Assembly (NCBI GenBank): GCA_045564035.1 | Contig: JBJLIA010000033.1 | Location: forward strand, 10,682-74,681 | Direction of reading: 5' to 3' | DNA: 64,000 nt | Origin: Gammaproteobacteria bacterium | Lineage (GTDB): Bacteria; Pseudomonadota; Gammaproteobacteria; Magnimaribacterales; D2472 | Shown here: piece by piece, positions 3,740-9,479 of the stretch | How positions within the stretch are numbered: the first letter of the stretch is position 1 | How the letters are laid out: the number at the start of each line of letters is the position of its first letter | Position numbers and translations under genes: made by a program | The notes under the pieces: generated by a model | The model's input: the letters and a program-made list of their open reading frames with translations, nothing else | Databases searched by the model: none | Told to the model about the DNA's origin: nothing

Positions 3740-3812
3740 ATACGTCTCCTTTTATCAATTTTAACCTATTTAAATTAATTTCATATATTTATAGTTGTTT
3801 TGTTGTTTTAGC

Positions 3813-3824
3813 ATGTTAAAACAT
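3813..3824. promoter_or_regulatory. Candidate operator: short inverted repeat ATGTT-AA-AACAT just upstream of the yerC-like/his operon
   Basis: 5-bp arms with a 2-nt spacer, 14 nt upstream of ATG 3838, in the only intergenic region that can hold the his promoter. Short and AT-rich, so it could be chance. Confidence 0.2.
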
Positions 3825-3837
3825 ATAGAATCTCAAC

Positions 3838-4095
3838 ATGAAATTATCAACTGTCCTAAAAAGTATAAATTCAACAAAAGATATAGATAATTTTTTAAAG
3901 GATTTATGCACGCCATCTGAAATCGAAGCGATGGAGGAGCGTTGGGAAGTAGCTAAGCTTTTATACAAAGGTGATTCTACATATAGAGATATAGCATCCA
4001 AGCTCAATACTTCGACAGCTACGGTGACACGTGTTGCTAGGTTTCTTTATAAAGAATCAAATCAGGGCTATTTAAAGGTTTTAAAAGAGGGTTAA
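3838..4095 (+). CDS. TrpR-like YerC/YecD family DNA-binding protein, first gene of the his operon
   Basis: 85 aa. Motifs CTPSEIEAMEERWEVAKLL and YRDIASKLNTSTATVTRVARFL (helix-turn-helix) are typical of YerC/YecD. The stop lies 2 nt before the hisG ATG. Confidence 0.8.
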   Translation: MKLSTVLKSINSTKDIDNFLKDLCTPSEIEAMEERWEVAKLLYKGDSTYRDIASKLNTSTATVTRVARFLYKESNQGYLKVLKEG

Positions 4096-4097
4096 AA

Positions 4098-4964
4098 ATG
4101 CAATCAAAAATAACTATAGCTATACAAAGAAAAGGCAGGCTCTTTGAAAGCAGTAAAAAATTATTAATTAAATCTGGAATTAATTTTTCTACTTCTGGTG
4201 AAAAACTATTAGCTCGTTCATCTAATATGGATATCGACATACTGTTAGTAAGGGATGACGACATTCCTTCACTTGTCTCCAAGGGAGTCGCCGATCTCGG
4301 AATCGTTGGGCAAAATGTTTTAGCAGAACAAGCAGCGACTAATAAGCAAATCACAGCGAGATCTATACTGAAATTAGGATTCTCAAATTGCAAACTTGCA
4401 TTTGCAAAACCCCTTAATTCAAAGTTGCGGTCGTTAAAAAATAAAACTATTGCTACTTCATATCCAGCTTTAGTAAAAAAATATTTAAGTAAAAATAATA
4501 TCAATGCAGATGTTATTAAAATTAATGGTTCTGTTGAATTAACTCCATATATAGGGATAGCAGATTGTATTTGTGATCTAGTTTCATCTGGCGCGACGCT
4601 TGATGCTAATAACTTGATTGAATTTAAAACACTTATGGAATCAGAGGCTGTACTGATATCAACCCTTGAGTCAAAAAAGATAGCTCAAGTTAATATCATA
4701 AATTTAATAAAAAGATTTGAGGGTGTTATCAATGCAGCAGAAAGTAAATATGTGATGCTAAATGCTCAAAGTAATGCAATTAATAAAATATGCAAATTGT
4801 TGCCTGGAGCTGATTCACCAACAATTATTCCACTGCAGAAAGACAATAAAGTAGCGATACATGCTCTATGCAAAGAACCTGTATTTTGGGAAACAATGGA
4901 AAAATTAAAATCAAATGGAGCATCCTCCATTTTGGTTTTGCCAGTTGAAAAAATATTAAATTAG
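4098..4964 (+). CDS. hisG: ATP phosphoribosyltransferase, long form
   Basis: 288 aa. Family-typical KGRL..S, DIPSLV..G.ADLGIVG and DLVSSGATL motifs plus the C-terminal regulatory domain. His operon context. Confidence 0.95.
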   Translation: MQSKITIAIQRKGRLFESSKKLLIKSGINFSTSGEKLLARSSNMDIDILLVRDDDIPSLVSKGVADLGIVGQNVLAEQAATNKQITARSILKLGFSNCKLAFAKPLNSKLRSLKNKTIATSYPALVKKYLSKNNINADVIKINGSVELTPYIGIADCICDLVSSGATLDANNLIEFKTLMESEAVLISTLESKKIAQVNIINLIKRFEGVINAAESKYVMLNAQSNAINKICKLLPGADSPTIIPLQKDNKVAIHALCKEPVFWETMEKLKSNGASSILVLPVEKILN

Positions 4965-6836
4965 ATGAAAATAATTAATCGATCTTCCTCAAATAAGCAA
5001 ATTCGATGGCTTGCAAGCCAGTCTGATAATAAGAGTCTTAACAAGACAGTTATGCGTATTAAAGATTTGGTTTTGAATGATGGCACCAAAGCCTTTGATA
5101 AAATTAATAAAGAGTTAAATCTGAGCTCTCCTCGGTCATATAAAGTAAAAATATCAGAAATTAAAAAGTCTGAACTTTTGATTACAGATAGTTTAAAGCA
5201 GTCAATTCTTAACTCAGCAGCTAACATAAAAATTATTTGTGAGAATGATAAGAAAGGCCTTTCAGGTTTGCCTGTTGAAACAACTAAAGGAATTAAAATA
5301 TGGAAAGAGTTTAGATCAATTGATTCGGTGGGTATCTACGTTCCAGGAGGAAGTGCTCCATTAATTTCGTCACTATTAATGCAGCTTATACCTGCAAAAG
5401 TAGCAGGGTGTAAAAATATTATTATTTGCACTCCCCCGAATAAAAAAGGTGACATTGCGCCAGAAATATTATGGATTGCAAAATTATATGACATAACAAG
5501 TATTTATAAAGTAGGCGGCGCACAAGCTATATTTGGAATGGCTTATGGAACAACTATCATCCCAAAAGTTAATAAGATATTTGGACCAGGAAATGCATAT
5601 GTAAACGAAGCTAAAAAAGTATGCTCAAATGATGTTGCTATTGATCTACCAGCAGGACCGAGCGAAGTCATGATAGTAACTGATAAAATTCAAAATGCTC
5701 CTATTGCTGCCGCTGACGCATTGTCACAATTAGAGCATGATCCAAATTCACGAGCATTTATTATTTCAAAGAATCTAACTATTCTAAATAAGGTCAGAAC
5801 GGAGATTCGAAAACAAATGAAAGATCTATCAAGGCAATCTGTCATTAAAAAAAGCATGCAAAACTTACTAATGATTAAAGCTAAATCTTTCAATGATTCA
5901 CTGACACTAATTAATGAATGTGCGCCAGAACATTTAATTTTATTAGATGAGGATTATTCTAAATATATTGGTGATATTAACAATGCCGGATCAATTTTTT
6001 GTGGCTCATTGAGTCCAGAATCATTTGGTGATTACTCATCTGGCTCAAATCATGTTCTGCCAACCAATGGACAGGCCAAAGTTCACTCAGGCTTAAGCGT
6101 TAGTGATTTTGGTAAACAAATTAGTGTTCAGACTGCTTCACCTCAGGGATTTAACAATCTAAAGGATACAGTAATCGAAATGGCAAAAGCAGAAACTTTG
6201 GATGCTCATGAGAAGGCTGTAAGAATTAGGGAGACCTTAGCAGCAAAAGAAGCAAGCTCAAGAAGCTTTACAGAAATTAGAAAAACTAATGAAACTAGTA
6301 TTTATATAAACTTAAATCTAGATGGCACAGGAAATTACAATATAAAAACTGGTCTCAATTACTTAGATCATCTTTTGGAACAATTCTCTAAGCATGGATG
6401 CATGGACTTAAACTTAACTTGTTTGGGTGATTTAGAAATAGATGAACATCACACTATTGAAGATATAGCAATTGCACTAGGCACTGCAATTAATAACGCA
6501 CTTGGAGATAGGGTTGGTATTTCAAGATATGCTTCAAGCGAAATATTGGTAATGGACGAAGTTAAAAGCAATATCAGCATAGATTTAAGCTCTAGACGAT
6601 TTCTTGATTTCAAATGTTCTGAATTAAGGGACTATGTTGGCGATTTTCCAACTGAGATGTTTGAACACTTTTTTGTATCTCTTATTAATTCTATCGCTAT
6701 GACATGTCATATCGAAACAACAGGGAAAAATTCTCATCATCTGCTTGAAGCTACATTCAAAACTTTTGCAAGATGTTTAAAATCAGCTGTGATTGTAGAA
6801 TCATCCAGGTCCTCGTCAACGAAAGGTTTGCTATGA
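4965..6836 (+). CDS. hisDB: Fusion protein: histidinol dehydrogenase (N-terminal ~424 aa) joined to imidazoleglycerol-phosphate dehydratase (C-terminal ~190 aa)
   Basis: HisD motifs: SQLEHDP, APEHL, GDYSSGSNHVLPT. After a short linker (AAKEASSRS, ~6237..6266) come IGPD motifs: RKTNETSIYINLNLDG, DEHHTIEDIAIALG, GKNSHHLLEATFKTFARCL. Single uninterrupted 623-aa ORF. Confidence 0.9.
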   Translation: MKIINRSSSNKQIRWLASQSDNKSLNKTVMRIKDLVLNDGTKAFDKINKELNLSSPRSYKVKISEIKKSELLITDSLKQSILNSAANIKIICENDKKGLSGLPVETTKGIKIWKEFRSIDSVGIYVPGGSAPLISSLLMQLIPAKVAGCKNIIICTPPNKKGDIAPEILWIAKLYDITSIYKVGGAQAIFGMAYGTTIIPKVNKIFGPGNAYVNEAKKVCSNDVAIDLPAGPSEVMIVTDKIQNAPIAAADALSQLEHDPNSRAFIISKNLTILNKVRTEIRKQMKDLSRQSVIKKSMQNLLMIKAKSFNDSLTLINECAPEHLILLDEDYSKYIGDINNAGSIFCGSLSPESFGDYSSGSNHVLPTNGQAKVHSGLSVSDFGKQISVQTASPQGFNNLKDTVIEMAKAETLDAHEKAVRIRETLAAKEASSRSFTEIRKTNETSIYINLNLDGTGNYNIKTGLNYLDHLLEQFSKHGCMDLNLTCLGDLEIDEHHTIEDIAIALGTAINNALGDRVGISRYASSEILVMDEVKSNISIDLSSRRFLDFKCSELRDYVGDFPTEMFEHFFVSLINSIAMTCHIETTGKNSHHLLEATFKTFARCLKSAVIVESSRSSSTKGLL

Positions 6837-7414
6837 CTGTAGCCATTATTGATTGTGGAGGAGCAAATCTTCGCTCAGTTCAAAAAGCAGTGGAGCTTCA
6901 AGACATGAAAGCCGTTATTACAAATGATAAAAATATTATATCCAATGCTTCATTTGTTATTCTGCCAGGTGTTGGCTCTGCAATGAGTGTCATGAATAAC
7001 CTTCAAGATAACAATCTAACGGAAACAATCAAAGAGCTAACAATGCCTGTTCTTGGAATTTGTATCGGAATGCATGTTCTCTTTGATTATTCTGCTGAGC
7101 ACAATACTGAATGTCTAGGCATCATTCCAGGAAATATTAAAAAATTTGATTCTAAGTTAGCTTTCAAGGTACCTCAAATGGGGTGGAATAAAGTAACATT
7201 TATTCAAGAGCAGTTTAAAAAACTTAATAATTACTATTATTTTGCTAATAGCTACTATTCACAAATTTTTGATCAAGCCCTAGCATCAGCTGAACATGGT
7301 GAATCCTTTGCAGCGGTTATTCAGAAAGATAATTTTCTTGGTTGTCAGTTTCATCCAGAAAAATCATCTTTTGCAGGAAAAAAATTTCTAGATCATTTCT
7401 TTAATTCGTCATGA
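6833..7414 (+). CDS. hisH: Imidazole glycerol phosphate synthase, glutamine amidotransferase subunit
   Basis: Start moved to ATG 6833, giving MTVAIIDCGGANLRSV. It forms an ATGA overlap with the hisDB stop. GICIGMH catalytic Cys and QFHPEKS motifs present. Confidence 0.9.
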   Translation: MTVAIIDCGGANLRSVQKAVELQDMKAVITNDKNIISNASFVILPGVGSAMSVMNNLQDNNLTETIKELTMPVLGICIGMHVLFDYSAEHNTECLGIIPGNIKKFDSKLAFKVPQMGWNKVTFIQEQFKKLNNYYYFANSYYSQIFDQALASAEHGESFAAVIQKDNFLGCQFHPEKSSFAGKKFLDHFFNSS

Positions 7415-8130
7415 GAATTCTTCCTGCTATCGATCTAAAAAATGGACACTGCGTTAGATTGTTGCAAGGTGATTTTAATCGGGTCACTAAATATAATTCA
7501 GATCCTTTAGCTCAGGCAAATTACTTTAAATCAAATCAGCTGAATCATTTGCATATCGTGGATCTTGACGGTGCAAAAACTGGAAATCAGCTCAATGTAA
7601 ATATAATTAAAACAATTTTAGAAATTTCAGATATTACATTACAGGTTGGTGGAGGCATTAGATCTATTCAAAAAGTTGAGTCCATGCTGAATATGGGGGT
7701 ATCAAGAGTTATTATTGGAACTGCCCTATTCCAAGAAAATTTTTTGCAAGATTTAAAGAAAAATTTTGATGCTGATCAAGTGGTATTAGCATTAGATTTT
7801 AAAATCAATAATTTTATACCTACAATTTATACACATGGCTGGCAGGATAATAGTCAAATTGATCTATATGATTTTTTAGGCGCCCAATCCTTTTTTTCAA
7901 ATATCCTAGCTACCGATATTTCCTTAGATGGATTAATGAAGGGTCCTAGTTTTAATACCTACAAAGAAATTTTAAAACTATTTCCATCATTAAACCTCAT
8001 AGCCTCAGGGGGCATTAAAAGCCTTCAAGATCTTGATGTGCTGAAAGCTATGAAAATCACAGAAACCGTTGTTGGAAAAGCTATATATGAAGAAAATATT
8101 TCCCTAAGAGATCTTAGCAATGATTACTAA
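7411..8130 (+). CDS. hisA: ProFAR isomerase
   Basis: ILPAIDLKNGHCVRL, HIVDLDGA and QVGGGIRS motifs. ATGA overlap with hisH. Confidence 0.95.
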   Translation: MRILPAIDLKNGHCVRLLQGDFNRVTKYNSDPLAQANYFKSNQLNHLHIVDLDGAKTGNQLNVNIIKTILEISDITLQVGGGIRSIQKVESMLNMGVSRVIIGTALFQENFLQDLKKNFDADQVVLALDFKINNFIPTIYTHGWQDNSQIDLYDFLGAQSFFSNILATDISLDGLMKGPSFNTYKEILKLFPSLNLIASGGIKSLQDLDVLKAMKITETVVGKAIYEENISLRDLSNDY

Positions 8131-8887
8131 GCGAGTTATCCCCTGTCTTGATGTAAAAGAAGGTAAAGTTGTCAAAGGAGTTCAATTCAAAAATCATCAA
8201 ATAGTTGGCTCAATAATTGATTTAGCAAAAAAGTATTCTGATGATGGAGCTGATGAATTGGTGTTTTATGATATCTCAGCAAGCACTGAGGGCTCTATTG
8301 TTGATAAAGCCTGGGTTTCAAAAATCGCTGATGTTATCAATATTCCCTTTTGTGTTGCTGGGGGGATCAAGTCAATAGAGGATGCAAGACAGATACTAAA
8401 CCTAGGAGCTGATAAAATTTCTATTAATACTCCAGCGTTAAATGATCCTCAATTAATTCAAATTCTTAGCAATGAATTTGGTTCACAGTGTGTTGTTATA
8501 GGTATGGATATTAAGTTTATCGATGGTCAATCCTTTTTATTTGCAAAAACTGGTAGTGAGAAAACAGCCTACTCTACTAACATAAATGCTAATGATTGGT
8601 TGATTAAGGTGCAAGAACTTGGAGCTGGTGAGGTTGTAATTAATGCCATGGGTCAAGATGGCGTCAAGAATGGATACGATATCGAATTACTCAAATCACT
8701 TGGATCTATATGTTCAATACCCATGATTGCATCAGGTGGTGCTGGAGAGCCTCAACATTTTGTTGATGTTTTTGAGAAGACAAATGTCGATGGCGCTCTT
8801 GCAGCGAGCATATTCCATAAAAATGAATATTCTATAGATCGGGTTAAATATGAGCTGAAATCTAATAATATAAATGTAAGGATATAA
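8120..8887 (+). CDS. hisF: Imidazole glycerol phosphate synthase, cyclase subunit
   Basis: RVIPCLDVKEGKVVKGV, CVAGGIKS and ASGGAG motifs. Confidence 0.95.
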   Translation: MITKRVIPCLDVKEGKVVKGVQFKNHQIVGSIIDLAKKYSDDGADELVFYDISASTEGSIVDKAWVSKIADVINIPFCVAGGIKSIEDARQILNLGADKISINTPALNDPQLIQILSNEFGSQCVVIGMDIKFIDGQSFLFAKTGSEKTAYSTNINANDWLIKVQELGAGEVVINAMGQDGVKNGYDIELLKSLGSICSIPMIASGGAGEPQHFVDVFEKTNVDGALAASIFHKNEYSIDRVKYELKSNNINVRI

Positions 8888-8888
8888 A

Positions 8889-9479
8889 ATGATGAATTTA
8901 GATTGGGAAAAAGTTAATGGGTTAATGCCCGCTATCATCCAAGATTATGAAACTTTGGAGGTTTTAATGTTGGGCTATATGAGCGAAGAAGCCTTAAAGA
9001 TTTCGCAATCATCAGGCTTTGCTACTTTTTATAGCAGAACAAGAAAAACATTATGGACCAAGGGTGAAACTTCTGGAAACAAGCTAACTATAAAAAATAT
9101 TATTCATGATTGTGATAAGGATACATTATTAATTCTTGCCAAAAATAGTGGCCCCACGTGTCATTTAAATAATAATTCATGTTTTATAGGTGCGCCCTCT
9201 TCCTCAAGTATTTTAGATGAATTAGAAGAAACCATAGATGCTAGATTTAAAGAAGCAAATATGTCCTCATATACTTTTCAGCTATATCGCGATGGAATAA
9301 AAGAAATTGCTAAAAAAATAACCGAGGAAGCGGGAGAAGTATCAATTTCAGCTGTTACAGACGACGGTAGAGTTATAGATGAATCTGCCGATTTGATGTA
9401 TCACCTTTTGGTAATGTTGAGAAAGTTAAATCTGAGTCACTCAGATGTTCTTCAAGAATTAAAAAATAGATTTAGATAA
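8889..9479 (+). CDS. hisIE: Bifunctional phosphoribosyl-AMP cyclohydrolase / phosphoribosyl-ATP pyrophosphatase
   Basis: N-terminal HisI motifs (GLMPAIIQD, SRTRKTLWTKGETSGN, DCDKDTLL) and C-terminal HisE motifs (EEAGEV, ESADLMYHLLVML). Confidence 0.95.
   Translation: MMNLDWEKVNGLMPAIIQDYETLEVLMLGYMSEEALKISQSSGFATFYSRTRKTLWTKGETSGNKLTIKNIIHDCDKDTLLILAKNSGPTCHLNNNSCFIGAPSSSSILDELEETIDARFKEANMSSYTFQLYRDGIKEIAKKITEEAGEVSISAVTDDGRVIDESADLMYHLLVMLRKLNLSHSDVLQELKNRFR

Follow-up and report, generated by a model that had tools for sequence, protein, structure and literature searches.

A fused hisD-hisB gene in the histidine operon of SAR86 bacteria and its counterparts in other bacterial lineages

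The 64-kb stretch of DNA analysed here (contig JBJLIA010000033.1; hereafter the window) is SAR86 DNA with a GC content of 33%, and it carries a histidine biosynthesis operon in which two enzymes are encoded by one gene. At positions 4965..6836 on the forward strand lies a single open reading frame (ORF) of 623 amino acids (aa), beginning with ATG, whose product consists of a histidinol dehydrogenase (HisD) followed by an imidazoleglycerol-phosphate dehydratase (IGPD). We write this hisD::hisB(IGPD) arrangement as D::B, using C for HisC and N for the phosphatase HisN. A first reading of the letters alone, the original prediction, had claimed an uninterrupted 623-aa ORF with a full HisD and a full IGPD. 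Pfam and NCBIfam bear this out, and the motifs that had been quoted (SQLEHDP, APEHL, GDYSSGSNHVLPT, DEHHTIEDIAIALG and GKNSHHLLEATFKTFARCL) all occur in the translation. We think it likely that the ORF encodes a genuine bifunctional enzyme, which arose once in SAR86 from an operon of the D-C-(N)B type and has been kept since.

The HisD module comprises residues 1-430 (4965..6254, +), as delimited by Pfam, functional residues, Foldseek and a C-terminal helix at residues 413-430. The Histidinol_dh family (PF00815) matches residues 18-422 over profile positions 4-410 of 411 (E=1e-136; 456.6 bits, cut-off 27), and the NCBIfam hisD model TIGR00069 scores 437.8 bits against a cut-off of 243.8. The IGPD module occupies residues ~432-623 (6258..6833, +) and is defined by NCBIfam, Pfam, its manganese-binding motifs and Foldseek. 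Here the Pfam IGPD family (PF00475) matches residues 462-605 over its entire profile, positions 1-144 of 144 (E=9e-51; 172.2 bits). Full-length NCBIfam IGPD (HisB) models align residues 432-623; NF002114 scores 189.3 against a cut-off of 189, while NF002111, at 228, falls under its cut-off of 231. Sequence matches of this part to IGPDs in the PDB reach E~1e-48. Pfam finds no PRA-CH or PRA-PH match in the ORF.

Both modules retain the residues expected of working enzymes. All 11 aligned functional positions of HisD (NAD, zinc, substrate and catalytic) hold the E. coli residue, and Y125, Q187, N210, S233, Q255, H258, E322, H323, D356, E410 and H415 are invariant in 40 of 40 SAR86 proteins. Among the E. 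coli counterparts, we take Q259, H262, D360 and H419 to be the zinc ligands, E326 and H327 the catalytic Glu-His pair, and Y130, Q188, N211, S237 and E414 contacts to NAD or substrate. In the IGPD part of the window protein, both [DN]xHHxxE manganese motifs are present, as DEHHTIE (493) and NSHHLLE (589). Conservation across the SAR86 alignment is high in both halves, at 0.7-0.9 per 20-aa block. Since the functional residues are invariant and both metal motifs intact, the two modules look catalytically competent and under purifying selection.

The junction between the modules spans residues ~423-433 (TLAAKEASSRS; 6231..6263, +), as placed by the SAR86 alignment and a structural model. Read directly, the sequence has no in-frame stop at this point. 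In SAR86, 8-12 poorly conserved residues separate the C-terminal HisD segment LDAH..AV.IR, which contains the histidine aligned to E. coli H419, from the IGPD N-terminus SR.....R.TNET.I. Within the alignment, junctions differ in length by no more than 2 aa, there is no conserved internal methionine, and mean column conservation over residues 421-440 is 0.55, compared with ~0.7-0.85 in most flanking blocks. A shallow alignment (24 SAR86 sequences, 79-93% identity) gave an AlphaFold model with a mean predicted local distance difference test score (pLDDT) of 44, which was discarded. AlphaFold2 run on 134 sequences that included alphaproteobacterial D::B proteins gave a mean pLDDT of 89.1 and a predicted template modelling (TM) score of 0.79.

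In that model the HisD helix of residues 413-430 is followed by coil at 431-433 and by the first IGPD strand at 434-440, with pLDDT ~83 over the join. With a helix running to 430, three coil residues and a strand at 434, the predicted connection is short and fairly rigid, not a floppy linker. A ~10-aa linker had been proposed; the variable stretch at ~423-433 is real, but the modelled coil is ~3 residues because the HisD helix extends to 430. The HisD half superposes on PDB entries 6an0, 1kae, 1k75 and 5vlc with Foldseek TM scores of 0.86-0.88, normalised to the target, and the IGPD half on 8qax, 2f1d, 6fwh and 4mu0 with scores of 0.93-0.96 and root-mean-square deviations of 1.0-1.5 Å. No solved chain among the Foldseek matches covers both halves.

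The structure of the join bears on whether the IGPD is also, or mainly, made separately from an internal start, which would render the fusion nominal. NCBI does call a 210-aa 'HisB' inside the homologous gene of one Rhodocaloribacter assembly, so annotation at times assumes such a start. In SAR86, however, the ~30 residues preceding the IGPD module include no conserved methionine, and the junction is modelled with confidence as a continuous helix, coil and strand. Further, the fusion contains no stop codon, so a full-length product must be made. We regard a separately initiated IGPD as improbable.

The conservation of both halves likewise speaks to the idea that one module is a non-catalytic passenger, with the IGPD serving only in oligomerisation or the HisD persisting as a regulatory remnant, and with a second, stand-alone copy doing the work. 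The reactions of IGPD and HisD are steps 6 and 9/10 of the pathway and are not consecutive, which makes substrate channelling unlikely; there is thus no channelling logic requiring two active domains. Against a passenger stand the HisD positions invariant across 40 sequences, the intact IGPD metal motifs, the high conservation of both halves, and predicted folds that are confident and superpose on active enzymes. In Maricaulis maris, moreover, no HisB or HisD is listed other than the fused gene. A passenger module is therefore, in our estimation, very improbable.

The fusion is a property of the clade and not of one contig. A scan of GTDB species representatives yielded 42 SAR86-cluster loci that match over residues 1-623 at 53-92% identity, drawn from single-cell genomes, metagenome-assembled genomes (MAGs), SAR86E, a SAR86B MAG and the closed chromosome CP097973.1. 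In every locus holding the whole gene (40/40), it is one uninterrupted ORF of 610-653 aa, and the order hisR-hisG-hisD::B-hisH-hisA-hisF-hisIE is identical throughout. More than 120 protein clusters of 623 aa with both Pfam domains come from ENA, JGI, NCBI, TARA and Logan. The search for Histidinol_dh plus IGPD proteins in databases and related MAGs, which the original prediction had proposed as a check, thus recovered the architecture in SAR86, and it did so in other lineages as well.

One window, judged from assemblies, would not by itself exclude an assembly or sequencing artefact that merges separate hisD and hisB genes, and a related 1.9-kb contig that is frameshifted at the same junction illustrates that errors or pseudogenes do occur. 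Against this, the single ORF is kept in all 40 loci, including the closed chromosome, the protein clusters derive from five data sources, and a separate IGPD would have no start codon. The breadth of the fusion over 40 independent loci rules out assembly error, and we consider the artefact reading effectively refuted, its remaining probability being negligible.

Around the fusion gene, Pfam and NCBIfam identify the operon hisR-hisG-hisD::B-hisH-hisA-hisF-hisIE, the order that had been read from the sequence, with its first gene described as yerC-like. That hisR-like gene (3838..4095, +) encodes an 85-aa protein of the TrpR/YerC family (Trp_repressor, E=6e-22; TIGR02531, 53.5 bits, cut-off 42.2) and immediately precedes hisG in all SAR86 loci long enough to show it. 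Next comes hisG (4098..4964, +), encoding a 288-aa long-form ATP phosphoribosyltransferase (HisG and HisG_C; TIGR00070 and TIGR03455). Downstream of the fusion lie hisH, the glutamine amidotransferase subunit (6833..7414, +; Pfam GATase); hisA (7411..8130, +; His_biosynth, E=1e-64); hisF (8120..8887, +; His_biosynth, E=5e-71); and the bifunctional PRA-CH/PRA-PH gene hisIE (8889..9479, +; Pfam PRA-CH and PRA-PH), the last three also being assigned from conserved order. Gene borders are packed for translational coupling. The TAG of hisG (4962-4964) abuts the fusion ATG at 4965, and the true start of hisH, ATG 6833, overlaps the fusion TGA as ATGA, with an equivalent start in SAR86 homologues.

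YerC is the histidine repressor HisR, whose gene as a rule opens the his operons of Proteobacteria that have it; the published motif there is TGTAnTArnnnnyTnTTACA (PMC9413887). In the window, a candidate HisR operator, the 20-bp palindrome TGTTTTA-N6-TAAAACA, lies at 3804..3823 (no strand assigned), 15 bp upstream of the hisR ATG. Its TTTA-N6-TAAA core sits at a constant -31/-32 of hisR in 18 loci of SAR86, the background frequency being 1 per ~5 kb; the palindromes at this position span the loci that we label L001-L019. In deeper SAR86 subclades the corresponding site reads TGTATTA-N6-TAATACA (L020:8840-8859, L023:8846-8865, L031:8766-8785, L038:8759-8778). As these palindromes match the published HisR motif, SAR86 appears to control its his operon via a TrpR-family repressor. 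A consensus scan also gave a sigma-70-like promoter candidate, TTAACC-17-TATATT, at 3761..3789 (+). Such sites are no commoner in the region than in shuffled sequence and are weak alone; this one is plausible because it is directly upstream of the operator palindrome.

Two genes of the pathway are missing from this set. The operon had been said to lack hisC and a phosphatase domain, and it does: in tblastn searches of the 64-kb window for HisC, HAD-type HisN or an IMPase-type phosphatase, no credible match emerged even at E<=1, PHP-type phosphatases not being queried. The nine queries were HisC and HisN of E. coli and of Bacteroidota, three HisC modules taken from fusion proteins, a HAD module and an IMPase-type candidate. 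With the same threshold and the same restriction on PHP-type enzymes, no HisC or phosphatase was found within ~10 kb of the fusion (less on short contigs) in the 42 SAR86 loci. Since neither was found near the fusion, completeness of the pathway is assumed by analogy with Maricaulis maris, and SAR86 HisC and histidinol-phosphate phosphatase are presumably encoded elsewhere in the genome.

Deeper SAR86 subclades (L021-L041) have a ~1.3-kb gap after hisIE, ahead of a downstream transporter-like gene. It was considered as a site for hisC and rejected, as it holds a lipoprotein gene of ~436-442 aa on the reverse strand (L023:14515-15825, -; L038:14422-15750, -). By eye, the lipoprotein is GH16-like, with the motifs WGNNE.QYYT and DGE.D.MEA. 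No such gene is present at the corresponding point of the window (9479/9481).

The same architecture occurs well outside SAR86. A library of representatives at 50% identity was searched, with domains classed by BLAST and Pfam; among the best 150 matches there were 10 HisD::IGPD representatives, 28 of HisD::HisC, 2 of HisD::HisC::(HAD)::IGPD, 7 of HIS4-like HisIE::HisD and 2 of HisG::HisD. D::B carriers in this library include Rhodocaloribacter sp. and a Bacillota MAG; further carriers, from a second search for homologues, are Maricaulis sp. W15, Maricaulis sp. CAU 1757, Hyphobacterium sp. HN65, Terricaulis and Hyphomonadaceae MAGs. The Maricaulis and Hyphobacterium carriers are cultured strains. 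Loci of the Maricaulis type read hisR-hisG-hisD::B-hisH-A-F-IE at ~60% GC, one of them on a 416-kb contig.

Several related arrangements came to light in these searches. HisD::HisC fusions, ~800 aa long, are common (28 among the best 150 matches: P0137, P0141 and 26 others), and triple D::C::B proteins of ~1000 aa (P0121/L082, P0349/L092 and P0381) are encoded in his operons that are ordinary in other respects. A 1401-aa D::C::HAD::B protein (P0147/L087) is encoded among eukaryote-like genes (RRM, USP9X-like). The D::C, D::C::B and D::C::HAD::B fusions are all absent from the his-fusion reviews that we searched. In Rhodocaloribacter sp. (GCA_054014555.1, L083:8001-12238), the cluster is hisG-hisD::B-hisH-hisF-hisIE, with a single His_biosynth (HisA/HisF-type) gene. 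No other gene of that type separates hisH from hisIE, so the cluster apparently lacks hisA. Glycocaulis sp. (GCA_050485565.1, L088:9316-10524, +) encodes, after an unfused hisD, a 402-aa protein made of a ~210-aa N-terminal region and a normal IGPD. The 210-aa region has no Pfam or NCBIfam match and no BLAST similarity to HisC (including that of its closest D::C::B relative), HisN or IMPase; it could be a decayed HisC module (compare the '(CB)' genes of Asticcacaulis and Brevundimonas), a phosphatase of an unknown kind, or the product of a gene call that reaches too far in a GC-rich genome.

The fusion had been thought undescribed, and this holds only in part. The searchable literature on histidine gene fusions lists hisNB, hisIE, hisHF, HIS4 and the Acanthamoeba heptafunctional protein and does not include D::B, nor is D::B mentioned in the SAR86 literature searched. 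But Ashniev et al. (2022), in their Additional file 3, give the operon of Maricaulis maris MCS10 as "hisR-hisG(DB)FAH(IE)" (PMC9413887). Sheet B of that file assigns both HisB and HisD to peg.1654 and places HisC (peg.2439) and a HisJ2 phosphatase (peg.2569) elsewhere in the genome. The same source lists hisGD(CB) for Asticcacaulis and Brevundimonas, hisGDB for Oceanicaulis, Woodsholea and Maricaulis JL2009, and hisR-hisGDC(JB)FAH(IE) for all HisR-bearing Legionellales, Thiotrichales and Xanthomonadales (PMC9413887). In sheet A of the file the Gamma- and Alphaproteobacteria headings are apparently swapped, with Asticcacaulis and Maricaulis under Gamma and Legionella and Xanthomonas under Alpha; sheet B is correct. 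The fusion type is thus already recorded in one supplementary table, without discussion. The original prediction had counted a common and already catalogued architecture against itself, and the D::B genes of other bacteria, together with the '(DB)' entry, make that description partly true.

The SAR86 gene can be set beside several known fusions. The alphaproteobacterial D::B proteins (Maricaulis, Hyphobacterium, Terricaulis, Hyphomonadaceae) share its Histidinol_dh and IGPD domains in 625-635 aa and its operon, hisR-hisG-hisD::B-hisH-A-F-IE without hisC. They differ in sequence (~37-41% identity), in a junction ~6 residues longer and in GC (~60% in the locus sampled, 33% in the window). HisNB of E. 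coli, other gammaproteobacteria and Bacteroidota also has a C-terminal IGPD, 42-51% identical to that of SAR86, but its N-terminal partner is a HAD phosphatase (step 8), whereas the SAR86 partner is HisD and there is no HAD domain. Accordingly, the HisNB model NF003937 aligns with the SAR86 protein over model positions 157-355 only and scores 236.6, below its cut-off of 443. In fungal HIS4 (HisI-HisE-HisD) and the Acanthamoeba heptafunctional protein, HisD is likewise fused to non-adjacent steps (PMC1963479, PMC6029752). These proteins are eukaryotic, with HisD C-terminal, HisIE (plus others) as the partner and IGPD separate, while in SAR86 HisD is N-terminal and hisIE is separate. Finally, HisD::HisC, HisD::HisC::IGPD and HisC::IGPD involve the same D-C-B gene block, in the same order and operon type (L082, L092). 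They keep the aminotransferase module, of which SAR86 has no trace, and none is close to SAR86 in trees.

To place these fusions, neighbour-joining trees with bootstraps were built for each domain from simple distances. SAR86 is monophyletic in both (200/200 bootstraps for HisD, 195/200 for IGPD). An exclusive clade of SAR86 and alphaproteobacterial D::B was recovered in 0/200 bootstraps, and monophyly of all D::B in 0/100. The alphaproteobacterial D::B clade (187/200 and 142/200) takes in the unfused HisD of Glycocaulis and Oceanicaulis, the Glycocaulis X::IGPD protein (X being its 210-aa region) and a D::C::B protein (P0349), and its D::B proteins are 60% identical to the unfused HisD of sister genera but ~41% identical to SAR86. 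Fusions from Rhodothermota, from a Bacillota-like source and in P0244 and P0123 each adjoin different unfused or D::C relatives. Given these unfused or D::C nearest neighbours and the lack of an exclusive clade, the best reading of the trees is that D::B arose independently at least five times.

A single origin followed by horizontal transfer among SAR86, Maricaulales/Hyphomonadaceae, Rhodothermota and others would account for the identical Maricaulis-type operon, hisR-hisG-hisD::B-hisH-A-F-IE, and his operons are well documented to be transferred as a whole (PMC1963479). It is opposed by the bootstrap counts just given, by the robust grouping of alphaproteobacterial D::B with unfused, X::B and D::C::B relatives, by its greater identity to the unfused HisD of sister genera, and by junction lengths that are unequal between lineages. 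We judge one shared origin to be quite improbable, and favour independent origins.

For SAR86, the precursor with the best support is an ancestral D-C-(N)B arrangement. Of the unfused HisD proteins, P0202 is the nearest to SAR86 (129/200 bootstraps); its gene belongs to hisR-hisG-hisD-hisC on a contig of 38% GC, where hisD and hisC overlap by 8 nt. Among outgroup loci, hisG, hisD, hisC and (hisN::)hisB occur together in 38 of 38, nearly all ordered G-D-C-(N)B-H-A-F-IE. The SAR86 operon is this arrangement minus exactly hisC and probably hisN. The P0202 locus, the outgroup order and the HisR-led gammaproteobacterial operons with D-C-(phosphatase::IGPD) together support the proposed ancestral state. 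Less firmly, the SAR86 IGPD may descend from a HisNB-type gene, with the phosphatase already fused in the ancestor. Its mean distance is 0.88 to NB-type IGPDs and 0.97 to monofunctional ones, with deep nodes unresolved, and the best NCBIfam IGPD model is the bifunctional one, by 8.6 bits.

The events themselves may be pictured as follows. Between hisD and the IGPD-coding sequence of an enteric or Legionella-type operon, hisC would have been lost, along with the phosphatase module if it was fused. The hisD stop would also have been lost, joining the HisD C-terminal helix almost directly to the IGPD N-terminal strand, and purifying selection on both domains would then have retained the fusion. 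This may have happened by one deletion, by losses in several steps with the stop codon going last, or through a D::C::B stage with in-frame excision. In Alphaproteobacteria, the intermediate arrangements observed are D|(C::B), D|B, D|(X::B) and D::C::B. A deletion of hisC together with the phosphatase half of hisB had been proposed; P0202 and the outgroups back its D-C-(N)B precursor, but a single deletion is one route of several. Streamlining, which had been offered as the driver, is unnecessary, because alphaproteobacterial loci at ~60% GC carry the same fusion.

One candidate for an unfused sister of SAR86 (P0127/L084; 99/100 bootstraps) was rejected, as it is a frameshifted or decayed copy of the D::B junction. 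On the 1.9-kb contig concerned (JGI 3300001830; L084:592-1910), a SAR86-like hisD of 49% identity ends prematurely, with the LDAH zinc-ligand helix deleted. The IGPD N-terminus (NRQTNETSIY...) follows directly in another frame and has no start codon. The contig appears to hold a D::B gene that has become a pseudogene, or else to contain a sequencing frameshift along with a deletion.

Several points weigh against a bifunctional enzyme that arose once in SAR86 and was then kept. The sole 'unfused' relative near SAR86 is this frameshifted copy of the junction, and no SAR86-related intermediate for a single deletion was recovered. Catalysis, expression and assembly of D::B proteins are predictions from sequence and model, and the roles given to the HisD residues are presumed from E. 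coli numbering. The trees are neighbour-joining trees with simple distances, whose deep nodes are unresolved. The SAR86 hisC and phosphatase genes were not found in the window or in the ~10-kb flanks. Lastly, part of the SAR86 population is reported to lack his genes altogether (Dupont et al. 2012); the operon is therefore an accessory trait within the clade.

How would such an enzyme work? The fusion would be translated from a compact, translationally coupled operon under HisR, presumably with histidine-dependent repression. In one polypeptide, the IGPD part would carry out step 6 and the HisD part the last two oxidations of the pathway. More likely benefits than channelling would be fixed 1:1 co-expression and co-assembly. 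IGPD forms a 24-mer of 432 symmetry with its N-terminal sheet outside and its C-terminal sheet inside, an assembly that is Mn-dependent and has active sites between subunits (PMC10978614), while domain swapping in HisD is stated in the title of PDB 1k75. The outward N-terminal sheet accounts for the C-terminal place that IGPD takes in all the IGPD fusions encountered (N::B, D::B, C::B, D::C::B and D::C::HAD::B). Combined with a domain-swapped HisD dimer, it predicts that HisD is displayed on the cage surface, so that HisD dimers would sit outside the IGPD cage.

We speculate that D::B is a repeatedly selected solution: both modules need their native oligomers and are joined by only ~3 coil residues, so that an octahedral IGPD cage of ~1.6 MDa would carry 12 HisD dimers on its two-fold axes. 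This is doubtful rather than likely, and the assembly of cage plus dimers is pure inference, which also counts against the wider interpretation given above. If true, the product would be a 'histidine particle' of fixed stoichiometry, to which HisC and the phosphatase might dock as well, and the at least five independent appearances of the fusion would reflect an assembly or kinetic advantage and not neutral loss of a stop codon.

The histidine pathway is a textbook model of gene fusion in pathway evolution, and nothing in the SAR86 finding overturns current understanding. The SAR86 gene is an independently evolved, clade-wide case of a fusion type already on record. Standard lists of his fusions (hisNB, hisIE, hisHF, HIS4) nevertheless lack D::B, D::C, C::B and D::C::B, and our comparisons show the D-C-B block as a recurrent fusion hotspot, with apparently convergent D::B events in several phyla. 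A dimeric enzyme rigidly joined to one that forms a 24-mer cage also poses a concrete structural question. For the organisms themselves, the fusion matters to how their metabolism is read from genomes. Public records of D::B proteins (P0004, P0013, P0016, P0047, P0285-P0308, P0273/P0274) are annotated only as 'histidinol dehydrogenase'. Given that label, pathway reconstructions may score IGPD (hisB) as missing, and would then wrongly predict histidine auxotrophy.

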